64,000 nt of DNA, taken from Chloroflexia bacterium (GTDB lineage: Bacteria; Chloroflexota; Chloroflexia; QHBQ01; JADMIH01). The stretch lies in NCBI GenBank assembly GCA_034437815.1, contig DAOTTC010000006.1, positions 1,616 to 65,615 of the forward strand, given 5' to 3'. The notes below the pieces were generated by a model. It saw only the letters and a list, made by a program, of their open reading frames with translations, ran no database searches and had not been told where the DNA came from. The translations under genes and the position numbers were made by a program. Below are positions 4,294 to 64,000 of this stretch, piece after piece; the stretch's first letter is position 1, and each line of letters starts with the position of its first letter.

Positions 4294-6660
4294 ATGATGT
4301 CCCATCTTATCCACCTCGCCGTAGTCGTGCGCTACCTGCCAACGCCGCCCGTCCTTGTCCGGGTCGGGCTGATCCTGCTATTCGTAGTCAGCCTCGCCTG
4401 CTCGCCCATCACCGCTCATAGTTATGCTCTCGGCGATCGCAACTCAGCGCTCGCTGCCGGACCATCACAACCTATATCCGCTCCCGTTGCGGTCAGAGGC
4501 CCTGACTCTCGCCTGTGGATTACGCCCCGAGGCGGCCAGCCTTTCTTCGTGGTCGGGGCAAACTACGAAGGCCCCACCGACCACGCGTGGATGATGTGGG
4601 AAGACGATAAATTCGACATCGGACTGATAGAAGCCGACTTCGTGAAGGCACGTGATTTTGGCATCAACACGCTGCGTATCTTCGTGCAGAGGCCCCTGCG
4701 CGACGACATCAATGCGGGAGACTTTTCCAAACTGGACGCAGTTACCGCGCTGGCCCGCAAGCACCGGTTGTGGCTCATACTGACCTTCACAGATTGGCCG
4801 GAACCCGACTTGGCCAAGGCCGCCGACCTCAACGCGCGCATAGCCGCTCATCTGGCGGACGAGCCCTCGATACTGGCCTACGACGTGAAGAACGAACCGC
4901 AGTTCACCGACATAGCGGGGGCCATCTACCCACCCGAAGTTCAGGTACCCATCCAGACCCCGGACCTCATAGCGACCTATGGAGAGCGCATCGCCCGCCA
5001 TTCCGTTGGCGAATATCGGCGGGGTGAAGGGCGCAACATCATCCCGGCCCGCATGAACGACGACCAAGCCTACGTGATGGCTAACTACTACAAATTGTTT
5101 GTTGACTTCCTCAACGCCGGGGCGCAGTGGGTCAATGCTCACCCCGGCACCACCACGCTCGATTTCATGGATTCTCCCGATTCGGCCTCGTGGCAGCCAT
5201 TCCTCACGGCGCTGGACACCAGCCTCGCCGCTTGGGTGAACACACAGATAGCTCCGGTGCGCGCTGCCGACCCCGGTCGCCCGATCACCGTCGGGTACAG
5301 CAACATGGTGCTCGCCAAGCTACCCTTCAACCGTTCACTTGACTTTCATTCGCCCCACCGCTTCACGTCGCACGGCCATTCGGGCCTCATGGGCACCCTG
5401 CGCGTGCTGGACAACTTGCAGCGCACTTTCGCCGGCCAGCCGGTGTTGCTGGAAGAGTTCGGCTACCCCGGCCAGCGGCGCGGCTCGGACGGTGGCTTGA
5501 CTGGCTACGACCCGCGCACCACCGCCAATCTCGAATCGGCCATCTGGGTCTACCTGTATGCCAACGGTTTCGCCGGAGGGGCCAAGTGGATGCTCAACAA
5601 TTTCCCGCCCGGCTATGACCCTGCTCAGAACTCATTTGGTCTGTTCGATGACAACGGCAGGCCCAAGATCAACGCGCACGCCTTGCGGCAGATCGTCCAC
5701 ACCCTCAGCCGCACGTCGCCCGGCACCATGTCTTCGGTAAGCCCGGACGACAATCTGGCGGTGAGGTATGCCTACACCTCACGAGACGCCCTTATCGTCG
5801 GGGGCAAAGTATACACGGGTACCAACGTCATCTTCACCGCAAACGCCCCTTCTAATTTGATCATGGGTCTTGTGGGAGGTAGCGTTACCATCTTCTCCAC
5901 GGACTCGGCCACGCTGGACCTCGACCTGCCGGGCATTTTCGGCCTGCCGGTGAGCGAAATGGGGCGCATCAACCTGACCGGGCAGGACCCCAACGGCAAC
6001 CCATGGACCCCTCCTATGCCCACCCTGAACGGCGACCGGCTGCGCGTCTCCCTGTCGCCGCTCTACCGATACCGACTGAGCATAGTGCCCAAAGCCGTGG
6101 AGCGCGCTCAACCCATGCCCGGCCCCGACTCCGTATACTTTCCGCAGACCGGCCACAACCTGAGTGGCGAATTCCTCAGGTACTGGCAGGCTAACGGCGG
6201 CCTGCGCATCTTCGGCTACCCCATCTCCGAGCCGTTCATAGAGAACGGTTATCTGGTGCAGTATTTCGAGCGCAACCGCTTCGAATACCACCCGCAGAAC
6301 CAGCCGCCCTACAACGTGTTACTGGGCAGGTTAGGAGCCGATGCGGTGGCTGGGCGCAAGTTCCCCGCAATCCAGCCGTTCGAGTCCGGCCCTGACCATC
6401 GCTATTTCCCGGAGACGGGCCACTCGCTCAACTACGCCTTCAAAGGTTACTGGGAGCGCAACGGCGGCCTTGCGGTGTTCGGTTACCCCATCTCCGAAGA
6501 GATACGCGAGGTCAACCCCATAGATGGCAAGGAATATACGGTGCAATACTTCGAGCGTGCTCGCTTCGAATACCACCCGGAGTATAAGGGCACCGATGCA
6601 GAAGTGCTGCTTGGCCTGCTCGGAGTAACCGCCCTCAAAGACAGGGGCTGGCTTCCCTGA
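4294..6660 (+). CDS. Secreted glycoside hydrolase family 5-like enzyme with two C-terminal YFPxTGH repeat modules
   Basis: N-terminal hydrophobic signal/anchor. YDVKNEPQF (acid/base NEP) and LLEEFGYPG (nucleophile) motifs. Duplicated ~55-aa modules at ~6134-6292 and ~6404-6585. Confidence 0.65.
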   Translation: MMSHLIHLAVVVRYLPTPPVLVRVGLILLFVVSLACSPITAHSYALGDRNSALAAGPSQPISAPVAVRGPDSRLWITPRGGQPFFVVGANYEGPTDHAWMMWEDDKFDIGLIEADFVKARDFGINTLRIFVQRPLRDDINAGDFSKLDAVTALARKHRLWLILTFTDWPEPDLAKAADLNARIAAHLADEPSILAYDVKNEPQFTDIAGAIYPPEVQVPIQTPDLIATYGERIARHSVGEYRRGEGRNIIPARMNDDQAYVMANYYKLFVDFLNAGAQWVNAHPGTTTLDFMDSPDSASWQPFLTALDTSLAAWVNTQIAPVRAADPGRPITVGYSNMVLAKLPFNRSLDFHSPHRFTSHGHSGLMGTLRVLDNLQRTFAGQPVLLEEFGYPGQRRGSDGGLTGYDPRTTANLESAIWVYLYANGFAGGAKWMLNNFPPGYDPAQNSFGLFDDNGRPKINAHALRQIVHTLSRTSPGTMSSVSPDDNLAVRYAYTSRDALIVGGKVYTGTNVIFTANAPSNLIMGLVGGSVTIFSTDSATLDLDLPGIFGLPVSEMGRINLTGQDPNGNPWTPPMPTLNGDRLRVSLSPLYRYRLSIVPKAVERAQPMPGPDSVYFPQTGHNLSGEFLRYWQANGGLRIFGYPISEPFIENGYLVQYFERNRFEYHPQNQPPYNVLLGRLGADAVAGRKFPAIQPFESGPDHRYFPETGHSLNYAFKGYWERNGGLAVFGYPISEEIREVNPIDGKEYTVQYFERARFEYHPEYKGTDAEVLLGLLGVTALKDRGWLP

Positions 6661-58034: not shown

Positions 58035-58493
58035 TCAGAAAGGGAATGTGTCGGGTGTGCATGTGGCTACCGCTGTGGAGGCGCGCTGTAGCTGCTGCCG
58101 GTCCCAACTCACCAGAGGGATGCTCATCCGCTGGGCGACAGCTACGTAAACGGCATCACCTGCGCGTAGGCTGAGGTCGGCGGCAACATCAATACTCTCC
58201 TGTACCAGTGTGGCATCGAGCGGGATGAGGCGCATCTCGCTCACGTTCTGTAGGGACTGCGCGGCCTGTCTGGCTATCGCGGCGGGGCCTGACTGCCGGG
58301 CAATGGCTGCCGCCACCTCGATGAGCAAAAGGGTCGGGGCTATGAGCAGTCCCCCGGCGTCTATAAATTTACTCATCCAATCAACGCTGGCCGCATGGTT
58401 GCGGTCCCAGTGCATGTACCAGCTTGCCCAGACGCTTGCATCTATAACCACGCTGGGATGTCGAAGCGAAACGGGCCGGACAGGGGTCGCCAT
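58035..58493 (-). CDS. vapC: PIN-domain toxin VapC
   Basis: Acidic residues in VVIDASVW, LLLIEVAAA, RAGDAVYVAVA and SWD. The start overlaps the antitoxin stop (TAATG). Confidence 0.8.
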   Translation of the reverse strand: MATPVRPVSLRHPSVVIDASVWASWYMHWDRNHAASVDWMSKFIDAGGLLIAPTLLLIEVAAAIARQSGPAAIARQAAQSLQNVSEMRLIPLDATLVQESIDVAADLSLRAGDAVYVAVAQRMSIPLVSWDRQQLQRASTAVATCTPDTFPF

Positions 58494-58750
58494 TAGAGCT
58501 TACGCCTTACATCGCGTATGGCCTCCACCGCGTCTATATTTGGCGGCAGGTACTGCGCCAGTTCCTCCGATAGCCGCTCCATTTCCTGCCACACGGTATC
58601 ACGTGCTGTGTCGCCCGGCTCCTCCGCAGGCACTATGCGCGCCACCACCATACCATAGCTGATAATTTCGACGATCTGATGTTCTTCTTGCACCCGGCGG
58701 AGCACCTCAAACAGGTGCTCTTGTAGGTCTTCAATTTCGATGGTGGTCAT
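58493..58750 (-). CDS. Antitoxin (Phd/YefM-like N-terminus) of the VapC toxin
   Basis: 85 aa. MTTIEIEDLQEHLFEVLRRVQEEHQIVEIISYGMVVARIVP. It overlaps vapC by 1 nt. Confidence 0.65.
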   Translation of the reverse strand: MTTIEIEDLQEHLFEVLRRVQEEHQIVEIISYGMVVARIVPAEEPGDTARDTVWQEMERLSEELAQYLPPNIDAVEAIRDVRRKL

Positions 58751-60141: not shown

Positions 60142-61767
60142 CTATACCTCACCCATACCTAGCCGTGCCAACATAGCATCCAAAGCTACATCCGCCTGCT
60201 CTCGCTCCTTTCGGGCAATGCTAAGGTCGGCCAGAATCTCACTCAGGGGCCGGTGGGTTGCCCGGTCGTTCACCTCCACGAACTGCGAGGGGCTTAGATT
60301 GTAGTCGGCGGCACGAGCTTCTTCTATGGTGATCACCCGACTCAGCTTCCCTCGCGTCTCCCATCGGTGGTACACCTCGACGACGGCGGCGATGCCCTCA
60401 TCGGTCAGCACGTTCTTGGGCTTCTCCTTGCGAAAGTAGGCCGAGGCGTTCACCAGCAGGATTTGGCCCTTGCGCTCTTCCGACTTATGGCGGTTAAGGA
60501 GCATGATGATGCCGGGCGCTGAGGTGTTGTAGAAGAGGTTTTCAGGGAGCAGGATCACCGCTTCGATGAAGTCGTGCTCCACGAACTGCCTGCGAATTTC
60601 CTTCTCCTTGTTGGTCTGCTTACTGCCCGACCCGCGCGATACCGCGCCGGTATCCAGCACGATGGCGGCCCGCCCGGTGTCCCGGAGCGAAGCCAGTATA
60701 TGCTGTACCCAGCCCCAGTCGGCAGACGAGCGCGGAGGGATACCGTAGCGGAACCGACCCCACTGGTCGGCCTCGTAGAAGTTTTCATCGTAGTTGTCCT
60801 GATTCCACATGGGGTTTGCCACAACGTAATCGAAGCGTTGCAGACCCGCTCCCTTAGGGGCAGTCTGCGGATTGCGTAACGTATCGCCTAGGTAGATACG
60901 GGCGTCGGTGTAGTCGTGCAGGAACATGTTCATCTTGGCCATTGCGTAGGTGGTGGGGTTGAGTTCCTGCCCGGAGAGTTTGGGTGCAAGATCGGCCTTA
61001 TCGGGGTTGTGCTGTATGTAGACCTGTCGCGCCTTGATGAGCAGGCCGCCCGAACCACATGCCGGGTCGTATATCTCGGCCTGCGGCATGGGGTCAATCA
61101 GTTCGGCCATGAGCCTGCCCACCTCCATGGGGGTATAGAACTCGCCCGCACTCTGACCCTGCCCCTCGGCGAACTTGCGCAACAGGTATTCGTAGGCGCG
61201 ACCCAGAATATCAGGCTCGGCGTTCTTGAGGCCCAGACGGTGGCGGCTGATTATCTCGATCAGAGCCGATAAGCGGTCGTCGTCAATCGTGCGCTGTCCG
61301 CTCTGGCGCTCGTTGTAGTCGCGCACGTTTATCACGCCATCGAGCGGAGGGTTCTGGCGGGCAACGGCGCGCATGGCCTCGCTCACGAACTGGCCCAGAC
61401 CATCCAGCGGGTGGTTGCGGATAGCATTCCAGTGGTATTCACGCGGGATGAAGAAGCGCACAATGCCCCTCCGCCCGCTCTTCAATGCATCTTCGTGGTC
61501 TGCGCTAACGATCTCCCATGCCAGACCTTCATCGCCGTACAGCTTTACCTGTTCGGCGAACTCATCGTCAAAAACATCGGACAAACGCTTGTAGAAAATC
61601 AGAGGAAGGATGAAGTCCTTGAACTTGGGTGCATCAGTGGCCCCACGAATGGCGCAGGCCGCATCCCAGAGCCATGCTTCGAGTGCGGCGAGGTCCAGAT
61701 GCTCCTCGGAAGGGTTAAGAGGCAGGGCAGTCTGCTTAACGGTGGACGCCATAAAGCATACTCCCAT
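60142..61767 (-). CDS. hsdM: Type I R-M N6-adenine DNA methyltransferase subunit
   Basis: HsdM N-domain, motif I YDPACGSGGLL, motif IV VVANPMW. Probable start ATG 61752. Confidence 0.93.
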   Translation of the reverse strand: MGVCFMASTVKQTALPLNPSEEHLDLAALEAWLWDAACAIRGATDAPKFKDFILPLIFYKRLSDVFDDEFAEQVKLYGDEGLAWEIVSADHEDALKSGRRGIVRFFIPREYHWNAIRNHPLDGLGQFVSEAMRAVARQNPPLDGVINVRDYNERQSGQRTIDDDRLSALIEIISRHRLGLKNAEPDILGRAYEYLLRKFAEGQGQSAGEFYTPMEVGRLMAELIDPMPQAEIYDPACGSGGLLIKARQVYIQHNPDKADLAPKLSGQELNPTTYAMAKMNMFLHDYTDARIYLGDTLRNPQTAPKGAGLQRFDYVVANPMWNQDNYDENFYEADQWGRFRYGIPPRSSADWGWVQHILASLRDTGRAAIVLDTGAVSRGSGSKQTNKEKEIRRQFVEHDFIEAVILLPENLFYNTSAPGIIMLLNRHKSEERKGQILLVNASAYFRKEKPKNVLTDEGIAAVVEVYHRWETRGKLSRVITIEEARAADYNLSPSQFVEVNDRATHRPLSEILADLSIARKEREQADVALDAMLARLGMGEV

Positions 61768-61899
61768 ATGGTATCAGGATGAAGTACCGGGAGCATCGTT
61801 TTATCAGATATGGCTGGCATTGTCAAGCCTGTCAGGCCGGTCTATCCCATACCTCTGCCTGTAATGCCCGGTATCTCACCTCACCTCATCTCATCTTAC

Positions 61900-62628
61900 T
61901 CAGTCTCGTCCTGCATCCGGCACTTTACGGGCCGATGGCTTTCCCTCCTCTAAGATGAGAGTAGTCTCAACGTACAAGTGGCTCTTCTCTATTGCCGCTA
62001 AAGCCTGCGCTATTAGTTTCTCAACCTTGGCCCGTTCGCCTTCCTCCAAACATGTATAGATATTGCTCTCTAGCGCCAGAAAGCGTATGACCCTCAGCAC
62101 ATTCTTAGCCATTAAGGGAAGGTAATGAAGCTCTAGTGACCAGAGCTTAGGAAAGTAATGCACGAGCTTATTGCGTAGCTTATGCAAGCTGTCCAAGGAA
62201 CGCTTTTCTTGATCTGTAAGCTGCAGCGGATTGGAAACATAAGCTGCATTTTGACTAAGTTCAATCACTTTTTGGAAGCTTAATAATCGTTCGTCATCTT
62301 CCTTTTTTCGACGTTTCTTATATTTTTCTAGCTCTTCACTAGCAGCTCGCCTTACTTCCGGATCTAGAGAAACTTGAGCCAGTATCGATGCTTCATCCTC
62401 GGAATATTGCGGTTCCTTCCCTTGCGGCTTTTCCCTCACATTCTCGGGGTTGGTGCCCCGGCACGCACTGACCGCGAAACCATACACTGCTCCGTAGAGG
62501 GCTAGGATCACCCACTTCCATAGCATAACATCCTGCTCTACCTCTTGCAGCCATATACACGCACGCTCTAAGCAGTCTAACGCATTAGTTTCCTCAGTGA
62601 GCCTTAGATATCTTGGTTCGACAGACAT
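61900..62628 (-). CDS. Hypothetical 242-aa protein with Rx4H (HEPN-like) motif; either an orphan RHS-toxin immunity protein or an R-M-linked RNase
   Basis: LHKLRNKLVHYFP (R152-H157, 62158-62175). One hydrophobic segment WKWVILALYGAVYGFAVSA. AT-rich. The start overlaps the upstream RHS-CT ORF by 25 nt. Confidence 0.45.
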   Translation of the reverse strand: MSVEPRYLRLTEETNALDCLERACIWLQEVEQDVMLWKWVILALYGAVYGFAVSACRGTNPENVREKPQGKEPQYSEDEASILAQVSLDPEVRRAASEELEKYKKRRKKEDDERLLSFQKVIELSQNAAYVSNPLQLTDQEKRSLDSLHKLRNKLVHYFPKLWSLELHYLPLMAKNVLRVIRFLALESNIYTCLEEGERAKVEKLIAQALAAIEKSHLYVETTLILEEGKPSARKVPDAGRD

Positions 62629-63050
62629 AATCGTTCATCCTCCTCCCAGCCAAATTTTGCACTGATAAGAGGCCCAACCCCAGAGAGGCGCTTGTAACAA
62701 ATTCTGGAGAGACGATACCCCAATACTGAGGTCAGGCCGTGTTTGCTTTGTAGCCCGCTGAGCAGTGCCCCCTCGTGGAAGTCCACCGTCAGCAAGCTGT
62801 TCTGCTCCTGCCCCACCGTGCCCAGCGCACCACCCGCACCCAATGAGGCACCCGGCACTATGCTGTCGGGGCTGATGAAGCGTGCAAGGCCGGGGTCGTA
62901 ATACCTTGCGTGGTAATACAGAAGGCCTGTGCCGTCCAGCCTCTGCCCCGTGTAGTTGAGCGTGGTGTGCCCTATGCCTATGCCCCCAGTGCGTACCTTG
63001 CCCCACGGGTCGTACTCCTGCTGAGACACCACCTGCCCGCTGGCGTTATA
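62604..63050 (-). pseudogene. 5'-truncated (orphan) RHS core end plus ~80-aa C-terminal toxin domain of unknown family
   Basis: YNASGQVVSQQEYDPWGKV...YTGQRLDGTGLLYYHARYYDPGLARFISPDSIVPG is the RHS-associated core terminus. The frame is closed by TAG at 63051-63053, where a repeat copy begins. Confidence 0.75.
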
Positions 63051-63342: not shown

Positions 63343-63792
63343 TCATGTCTCTGAGAGATGGTCATAATATGGGCTCCAATTTTGCAAATCATAAGGCGGC
63401 TCTCCAAGTTTACTTGGGACACGGTACCACCAGTAACCCTTTTTTATAACGTTATCCAGAATTGGCAGCAAGGGTTCCTCTACCGCCTTTGTTACCTCAA
63501 TAAACATAGCATCCCAAGGCTGCAATGCAGCAAGCAGTTTGCTCTGAACAGCTGGTGGCACCTGGCTAATTAATTCTTCGAGGAGATCTCTGGCACCAAG
63601 ACTGTTAGTATAATCAGCAAAGGAGTCATTATATCCCTGTGCGATTTCAATTACAAAATTGCGCCAGTCCTGTAATAACATCTCCAAGGTAATTGGAAAC
63701 TTGGCGCGTCTAGAGAAAGAGTCAAGAATAGCGGTAACAAGCTTCAACTCATCCGCGGATAAATGAAGGTTAGCGTCCATATTTAATCCCAT
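63343..63792 (-). CDS. Putative immunity protein of the upstream polymorphic toxin
   Basis: 149 aa, acidic, AT-rich. It starts 11 nt after the stop of the toxin C-terminus. No family recognised. Confidence 0.45.
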   Translation of the reverse strand: MGLNMDANLHLSADELKLVTAILDSFSRRAKFPITLEMLLQDWRNFVIEIAQGYNDSFADYTNSLGARDLLEELISQVPPAVQSKLLAALQPWDAMFIEVTKAVEEPLLPILDNVIKKGYWWYRVPSKLGEPPYDLQNWSPYYDHLSET

Positions 63793-63802
63793 CTATCCCT
63801 TA

Positions 63803-64000
63803 TTATTTGCAGTATTTAGCAACTTGTTCGAGCCAATAATCATACCCCCGTGTTGGTTGGAAATAGGTAACTATGTTACCTGTTTCGTCTATTATAGCAA
63901 ACTCATTTGTGGCTCTATTATATAAATAATGCCAACCTCCTTTAGACTGAAAATAATTCCAAATGTCCGATGTATAATATTTTGGTCCAGTTGTAGAACG
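63803..64000 (-). CDS. C-terminal end of a polymorphic-toxin-type protein (5' part outside window)
   Basis: Minus-strand frame is open to the window edge: ...RSTTGPKYYTSDIWNYFQSKGGWHYLYNRATNEFAIIDETGNIVTYFQPTRGYDYWLEQVAKYCK*. The call rests on context (immunity-like gene, then orphan RHS-CT). Confidence 0.4.
   Translation of the reverse strand, partial: RSTTGPKYYTSDIWNYFQSKGGWHYLYNRATNEFAIIDETGNIVTYFQPTRGYDYWLEQVAKYCK

Follow-up and report, generated by a model that had tools for sequence, protein, structure and literature searches.

A 242-residue Rx4H protein between an RHS core remnant and hsdM in a Chloroflexia genome: a likely solo member of an unannotated HEPN-superfamily family

A stretch of 64,000 nt from a Chloroflexia bacterium (GenBank assembly GCA_034437815.1, contig DAOTTC010000006.1, positions 1,616 to 65,615 of the forward strand; referred to here as the window, in whose numbering positions are given) contains, on its minus strand, an open reading frame (ORF) of 242 aa at 61900–62628. 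This ORF lies between an RHS-derived ORF and hsdM of a type I restriction–modification (R-M) operon, a position that was given correctly in a preliminary description of the DNA and that raises the question of which of its two neighbours, if either, the protein serves. It had been proposed to be either the immunity protein of an orphan RHS toxin or an HEPN effector travelling with the R-M genes. The analysis reported here favours a different answer, to which a probability of about 0.68 is given: the protein is a member of an unannotated family of the HEPN superfamily and acts as a solo, conflict-island RNase, being neither an RHS immunity protein nor a dedicated R-M accessory.

The Rx4H protein family and its relation to HEPN domains

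When 1.84 billion cluster representatives were searched exhaustively by phmmer with the 242-aa protein, 725 of them matched at E ≤ 1e-3, of which 226 also reached E ≤ 1e-10; this puts the size of the family at 725 clusters or more (clustered at 50 % identity). A profile search found 789 proteins at E ≤ 1e-5, all of which were unnamed or annotated as ‘hypothetical protein’ and none of which carried a Pfam domain. The 242-aa protein itself had no above-threshold match in Pfam, NCBIfam or PADLOC, and its sole weak library signal was to DUF3644 (E = 0.0025 over residues 100–178 with the Pfam model; E = 0.0074 with the PADLOC model). Homologues were present in Syntrophaceae, Verrucomicrobiota, KSB1, Saccharibacteria, Paenibacillus and others. 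The median length of the family was 199 aa, and the protein of the window was longer than this owing to a Lys/Glu-rich insertion that most members lack; this is the charged linker of the preliminary description, which occupies residues 66–113 and consists of K, R, E or D at 52 % of its positions.

The R-N-x3-H motif that had been noted in the protein was present (SLHKLRNKLVHYFP, with the codons of R152 to H157 at 62175–62158), and its conservation was counted in 147 aligned representatives with pairwise identities of no more than 50 %. R152 and H157 were each kept in 145 of the 147, with an R–H spacing of 4, whilst the residue following R152 was N in 128, D in 16 and H in one (N or D in 144). 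Because the R, the H and the N/D after the R are near-invariant in these representatives, the alignment identifies Rx4H as a signature of the family and not a chance string. P160 was kept in 140 representatives and D18 in 124 (84 %), with K or R at position 22 in 98 (67 %). Where helix 2 begins, the triplet W-K-W (residues 37–39; alignments A2 and A4) was nearly as conserved as the catalytic-type R and H, with W37 found in 135, K38 in 144 and W39 in 142 of the 147 sequences; no counterpart of this triplet is found in the HEPN descriptions consulted.

The hallmark of HEPN domains is an Rx4-6H motif in which the R is followed by a polar residue (N, D or H). The motif ends helix 3 of an up-down four-helix bundle, helices 2 and 3 are separated by a variable insert, and an acidic Ex3[KR] motif is often present in helix 2 (PMC3710099). 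AlphaFold2 models were obtained for the protein of the window (predicted local distance difference test score, pLDDT, 81; predicted template-modelling score, pTM, 0.72) and for the compact homologue P0003 (124-sequence alignment; pLDDT 86.6, pTM 0.86). Both models were all-helical, as the typical family member of about 200 aa is predicted to be, and in both the Rx4H motif was located where the third long helix reaches its C-terminal end, with two extra C-terminal helices after the bundle. In the P0003 model helix 3 covered residues 103–121, the motif RNKFEH residues 117–122 and the insert residues 59–102; in the model of the window protein helix 3 covered residues 139–155, with R152 in the helix and H157 in a loop, and the insert residues 58–138. 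The poorly conserved segment between helices 2 and 3 was the site of the Lys/Glu-rich insertion of the window protein. Agreement with the HEPN layout was judged by the order of secondary-structure elements in these models only. The pattern D18-x3-[KR]22 resembles the accessory Ex3[KR] motif of HEPN domains (PMC3710099), but sits in the first modelled helix. Residues 36–57, previously described as an N-terminal hydrophobic helix, reached a Kyte–Doolittle maximum of 1.55 (19-residue window), which is borderline, and were modelled as a helix inside the predicted bundle at pLDDT >90; a membrane anchor in this position was rejected.

HEPN families have been defined via profile–profile matches of 75–98 % probability (PMC3710099). 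When the family was compared by hhalign with 12 DUF3644 domains drawn from genomes of the same phylum, a probability of 76.8 % was obtained (E = 2.1e-5) for a stretch of 67 columns with the LRNxxxH helix at its centre, and a more diverse alignment of the family (A2) gave 55 % (E = 1.2e-4). Column-reversed controls gave E values of 0.19–0.64 (0.44 for the main DUF3644 comparison). With the same set-up the family matched RiboL-PSP-HEPN at E = 0.005, DUF4145 at E = 0.018–0.18 and HepT at E = 0.08–0.3, all weaker than DUF3644, and these three were rejected as the nearest family; DUF4145 had been the candidate named in the preliminary description. Established HEPN families matched one another at E = 0.002–0.36 only. 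Since 2.1e-5 compares with 0.002–0.36, the link between the family and DUF3644 is, at the level of profiles, stronger than those that join accepted HEPN families to one another under the same conditions, and DUF3644/EC042_2821 is the closest described family by sequence comparison. HMMER detected HEPN_RiboL-PSP weakly in two members. Membership in Pfam DUF3644 itself was ruled out, as the protein of the window scored 17.9 bits (E = 0.0025) against a gathering threshold of 27.6 bits (PF12358) and only 1 of 133 family members matched the model at E ≤ 0.01. The near-invariant motif with N or D after the R, its predicted place where helix 3 ends, and the DUF3644 profile match (E = 2e-5) nevertheless bear out the HEPN-like reading of the preliminary description, and on the combined sequence and model evidence the family quite probably belongs to the HEPN superfamily.

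DUF3644 is the EC042_2821 HEPN family, which has been reported in R-M operons (PMC3710099). It also forms the N-terminal domain of the defence protein HEC-08, in which the histidine of Rx4-6H is needed for defence and which was matched by its authors to PDB 5YEP. The present family shares with DUF3644 the hhxLRNxxxHh catalytic helix with a short helix before it, the weak HMMER detection by both Pfam and PADLOC models, HepT/SO_3166 as the nearest solved structure, and a location near R-M and defence genes in some loci. DUF3644 is, however, usually fused to a winged helix-turn-helix, a restriction endonuclease or a Zn-ribbon domain, and the DUF3644-bearing open frames found here were mostly of 300–440 aa, whereas members of this family are solo proteins of about 200 aa. 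In addition, DUF3644 has AWELLLKA where this family has the invariant W-K-W of helix 2.

Foldseek searches of the PDB gave low root-mean-square deviations (rmsd) only for HepT/SO_3166 HEPN toxins (TM-score 0.53–0.56 on the target, rmsd about 5 Å; non-significant), the best HepT chain being 7bxo_G (TM-score 0.56, rmsd 4.9 Å over 151 columns). The remaining top matches had an rmsd of about 9 Å or more, mostly >12 Å, and nothing meaningful was found in BFVD. Of the structural check suggested in the preliminary description, the helical bundle with the motif ending helix 3 was recovered in the predicted models, whilst the HepT matches stayed below significance. HepT (DUF86; MntA-HepT; 5YEP, 7BXO, 6M6W) was the best geometrically consistent match and resembles the family in its Rx4H motif and small size. 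It differs in its MNT nucleotidyltransferase antitoxin, since no such cognate gene, nor any other conserved neighbour, is adjacent to members of this family; the profile match to HepT was non-significant, and the family is some 60–100 residues longer, owing to the insert and the two C-terminal helices. AbiD/F, AbiJ, AbiU2, AbiV and PrrC/RloC offer a further parallel as stand-alone or R-M-adjacent HEPN RNases of defence islands, with the same proposed latent-RNase logic (PMC3710099). In contrast to these, no Abi or PrrC model in Pfam or PADLOC was matched by sequence, the ABC-ATPase domain of PrrC/RloC is lacking and a link to phage is here only proposed.

The upstream RHS fragment and the neighbourhoods of homologues

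The ORF upstream of the 242-aa ORF (142 aa, 62604–63032, same strand) overlaps it by 25 nt (62604–62628). This overlap had been taken as toxin–immunity coupling, and the upstream ORF as an orphan RHS toxin that ends in an unknown domain of about 80 aa; the overlap is real, whilst neither interpretation was upheld. The 142-aa ORF matched the RHS-associated core model at profile positions 1–51 of 76 only, and its blastn homology to a paralogue on contig C70 (93.6 % identity) spanned 63042 to 62761 (282 nt) and then ended. At the protein level, both the C70 copy and the main RHS gene (just past the window edge) go on after ...DFHEGxLLSGL with N[SN]DNALILQKGYWFQLSGQDRRQRQAREP.GP.NPQALSRYAYVLGNPLRY[VT]DPTGH, and the RHS paralogues split into different C-terminal domains only past DPTGH (YAYVLGNPLRY[VT]DPTGH). 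As homology ends about 60 core residues before DPTGH, the core-end/cleavage motif, the upstream ORF possesses neither the cleavage motif nor a toxin. Its last ~48 codons (62604–62760) had no homologue in 40 relatives by DNA, nor beside any homologue of the HEPN-like gene, and its 53-aa tail gave chance-level matches only in 401 genomes of the phylum. By these sequence comparisons the 142-aa ORF is a doubly truncated internal remnant of an RHS core, read through at its 3' end and devoid of a toxin domain, and the 25-nt overlap is incidental.

The paralogous locus on C70 (1363–3814, minus strand) holds a 409-aa fragment in which both DPTGH and a C-terminal domain (about 190 aa) are intact. The next ORF encodes a hydrophobic protein of 128 aa that is unrelated to the 242-aa protein and is probably the immunity protein of this locus. 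A further orphan core fragment, with one TGA, is present at C70:1680–1862. The main RHS gene, which lies upstream of the array (contig C6, ~65418–67149, with its C-terminus at 63803–64000 of the window), has an in-frame TAG within YDP*GKV and, relative to the C70 paralogue, a frame change with about 25 codons lost between ...YYDPGLARF and LTVDFHEG. From its sequence this gene seems to be disrupted, and could be a pseudogene or reflect an error in the metagenome assembly. Between a putative immunity ORF (63343–63792) and the RHS remnant, the segment 63110–63273 matched the ends of contigs C133 and C100 at 77–90 % identity; it is a dispersed repeat that also breaks assemblies, and the RHS homology starts right beside it, at 63042.

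About 53 distinct neighbourhoods of the family were compared, comprising 9 exact-protein look-ups (the window included), 10 species genomes and 34 usable metagenome loci, the neighbours in the last being annotated from ORF calls made in this analysis. An all-against-all blastp comparison of the ORFs within ±2.5 kb at 15 loci revealed no recurrent neighbour. Pfam tallies of 59 and 146 flanking proteins contained no family in more than four loci, with only generic TPR reaching four, and a two-gene toxin–antitoxin system was rejected on these results. In 18 homologue loci tblastn detected no RHS, and the 25 commonest neighbour families of 34 further loci included neither RHS nor any other recurrent family. 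R-M genes were directly adjacent in 2 of the ~53 contexts, namely the window and L045 (type IIG); R-M methylases lay within about 6 kb in L008 and L044, an XhoI system was near one of the loci L015–L024, and phmmer searches of the 34 metagenome loci with HsdM, HsdS, HsdR and methylase seeds gave one marginal match. Co-occurrence with RHS C-terminal domains or with R-M genes, by which the preliminary description proposed to decide between its two answers, was therefore recurrent for neither.

Other conflict-related genes were found near some homologues. These included toxin–antitoxin genes (VapBC or other) in L001, L005 and L042, a TIR protein in L003, a STAND NTPase in L044 and integrases or transposases in L008, L015 and L021, and Apea- and Ymh-type HEPN proteins were among the neighbours in metagenome loci. 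In L042 (6001–7293) the homologue is situated 5 nt upstream of an MNT (Polbeta)/HepT-like_2 toxin–antitoxin pair, which is a complete pair of its own, so that two different HEPN-type genes are neighbours there, flanked by housekeeping genes (tRNA-synthetase and ribosomal).

A search of 61 genomes (this genome and 60 relatives) found the family in this genome only. Orthologues of hsdM with 68–73 % identity were present in five of the 60 relatives, and those five genomes lacked the family. The G+C content of the HEPN-like gene was 47.5 %, compared with 61.5 % for the genome, and its third-position G+C fraction (GC3) was 0.48 compared with 0.74 for hsdM and hsdR, giving a sharp break in composition between the gene and hsdM; the gene together with its 5' flank had a G+C content of 47.5–49 %. 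The gene is patchily distributed, and its horizontal acquisition is probable. A phage origin was considered and rejected, no match being found in 50,697 phage records or in PHROGs. Viral or plasmid matches to the family amounted to one IMG/VR contig and one Alteromonas plasmid with all-hypothetical neighbours. The former (L120; IMGVR_UViG_2816332134_000001, 33.8 kb) carries, at 6001–6603, the only family member (31 % identity) that was found on a contig classed as viral.

Proposed role and alternative explanations

By analogy with characterised HEPN proteins, the 242-aa protein would be a metal-independent endoribonuclease and would form a dimer in which the R152/N153/H157 motifs make up the active site. 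From what is described for HEPN domains, H157 would be the general base, R152 and N153 would stabilise the transition state or bind the backbone, and cleavage would leave 2',3'-cyclic phosphate ends (PMC3710099). The gene would have been acquired independently and have become lodged in a low-GC block of a variable island, between the decayed RHS core fragment and the type I R-M operon. Its most probable role, again by analogy, would be that of an RNase that belongs to a conflict island and works on its own, whether in stress, in abortive infection or as a toxin; such an RNase might restrain itself through its two C-terminal helices and its variable insert.

A number of observations weigh against a solo HEPN RNase. 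Helix 2 lacks the acidic residue of HEPN domains and has the invariant W-K-W instead. Foldseek found no significant match in the PDB (none at E < 0.001, with the best HepT match at E of about 0.65), and profiles built from 14 or 133 sequences detected no relative in the PDB by sequence, even with the threshold relaxed to E ≤ 10. The match between the profiles of the family and of DUF3644 is local, covering 67 columns, and of borderline probability, the N-terminal halves of the family and DUF3644 gave no significant alignment (E = 0.076), and the family falls below the Pfam threshold for every HEPN model. A solo RNase would also have to be kept harmless without a partner. Finally, many homologues lie amid housekeeping genes (for example L043 and L020; ArgRS, lactate permease, DXP synthase), so that their surroundings do not in every case point to defence.

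The explanation suggested by the position of the gene, that it encodes the immunity protein of the RHS module directly upstream and is translationally coupled to it via the 25-nt overlap, draws on an array that contains a bona fide C-terminal domain and small-ORF pair further upstream, and on a base composition (47.5 % G+C, GC3 0.48) that is like that of the RHS tip/immunity region (35–49 %) and unlike that of hsdM and hsdR. What the gene shares with RHS immunity genes is, however, no more than its position: it is small and, in an orphan array, overlaps an RHS-derived ORF at its end. No toxin domain is encoded by the upstream ORF, the ~48 codons beyond the end of homology at 62761 have no homologue, the C70 paralogue with the same core stretch precedes an unrelated ORF, and no homologue was found beside RHS in the loci surveyed; nor is an invariant, enzyme-like R-N-x3-H motif expected of an immunity protein that only binds. 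This explanation is largely refuted and was rejected as very improbable. Scarcely better placed is a PrrC-like, second-line effector of the adjacent type I R-M system, which HsdMSR would silence and which phage inhibition of restriction would release. The gene is on the same strand as hsdM and 132 nt upstream of it, and nothing resembling a terminator was detected on the minus strand of the intervening 61768–61899; the L045 homologue is directly upstream of a type IIG R-M gene, and further R-M genes lie near the few loci named above. At least 16 HEPN clades, DUF3644/EC042_2821 among them, have moreover been linked to R-M systems (PMC3710099). Set against this are the adjacency in only 2 of ~53 contexts, the single marginal match in the 34 metagenome loci, the five relatives with hsdM orthologues of 68–73 % identity and no member of the family, the composition break at hsdM, and the lack of an ABC-ATPase or other PrrC-type sensor domain in the 242-aa protein. 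The HEPN effector travelling with R-M genes, as the preliminary description had it, was consequently rejected as a family trait, and a PrrC-like role at this locus appears unlikely.

Two further explanations are each of low probability, though they carry somewhat more weight. In one, the protein is an HEPN-like bundle that is not a nuclease, a non-toxic RNA- or nucleotide-binding or regulatory protein that would need no antitoxin. The absence of a conserved antitoxin or partner, the many copies amid housekeeping genes and the non-significant structural match to HEPN toxins are consistent with this, as are precedents such as MtlR for non-catalytic HEPN domains (PMC3710099). Such domains have, however, typically lost Rx4-6H (PMC3710099), whereas in this family the R, the N/D and the H are each 98–99 % conserved, and the patchy distribution and low G+C content would be less expected of a housekeeping regulator than of a mobile gene involved in conflict. 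In the other, which is about equally probable, the protein is a stand-alone anti-phage/abortive-infection HEPN RNase, self-restrained without an antitoxin (for instance by the helices at its C-terminus or by the helix 2–3 insert) and perhaps backing up the adjacent type I R-M system at this locus. The solo, conflict-island RNase of HEPN type, with the broader choice of roles given above, remains the preferred reading.

The family is a new, unannotated one within a well-known superfamily, and not a new kind of system. Its assignment provides a superfamily, as well as testable catalytic residues (R152, N153 and H157), for several hundred clusters of ‘hypothetical protein’ across many phyla. It also corrects two tempting annotations, in that the ‘orphan RHS toxin’ is a toxin-less core remnant and the overlapping ORF is not its immunity gene. 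If the family were an active solo RNase, the manner of its restraint without a partner would have some bearing on the biology of toxins and defence. Many HEPN RNases of conflict islands are already known, however, and the gain is incremental.

Features of the locus

The features of the locus are collected in Table 1. A Shine–Dalgarno-like run, read from the sequence, precedes the start codon of the 242-aa ORF, which opens at the ATG at 62628. Promoter and terminator scans gave counts at the shuffled expectation, and only short, chance-level matches were found in a search for flanking repeats or target-site duplications around 61900–62760.

Table 1. Positions of the 242-aa ORF, its predicted elements and its flanks in the window
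Feature	Position	Strand	Remarks
242-aa ORF, unannotated HEPN-like family member, predicted all-helical	61900..62628	-	Predicted helix 1 12–29, helix 2 36–57, variable insert, helix 3 139–155, helix 4 163–187, two C-terminal helices
R152-N-K-L-V-H157 codons, Rx4H, predicted catalytic dyad	62158..62175	-	C-terminal end of helix 3/start of next loop
Lys/Glu-rich insert, residues 66–113, without counterpart in most homologues	62290..62433	-	Helix-2/helix-3 region, variable in HEPN domains
GGGAGGAGG, Shine–Dalgarno-like run	62639..62647	-	10 nt before ATG at 62628
Low-GC (49 %) sequence without homologue; last ~48–52 codons of upstream ORF by read-through; 5' flank of HEPN-like gene	62604..62760	-	
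Internal RHS core remnant, cut on both sides	62761..63042	-	93.6 % identity to C70 paralogue; TIGR03696 positions 1–51 only
hsdM of neighbouring type I R-M operon (context)	60142..61767	-	GC3 0.74, compared with 0.48 in HEPN-like gene

Downstream of the 242-aa ORF, hsdM is followed by hsdS, a VapB/VapC pair, hsdR and a YgjP-like gene. When the window at 58035–58750 was compared with the corresponding locus (L054) of the relative G278, whose hsdM is 73 % identical, the hsdR of G278 appeared directly after hsdS, with no VapBC between them. Because hsdR seems to start right after hsdS in G278, the VapBC module within the type I operon of the window looks, from this comparison, like a lineage-specific insertion.

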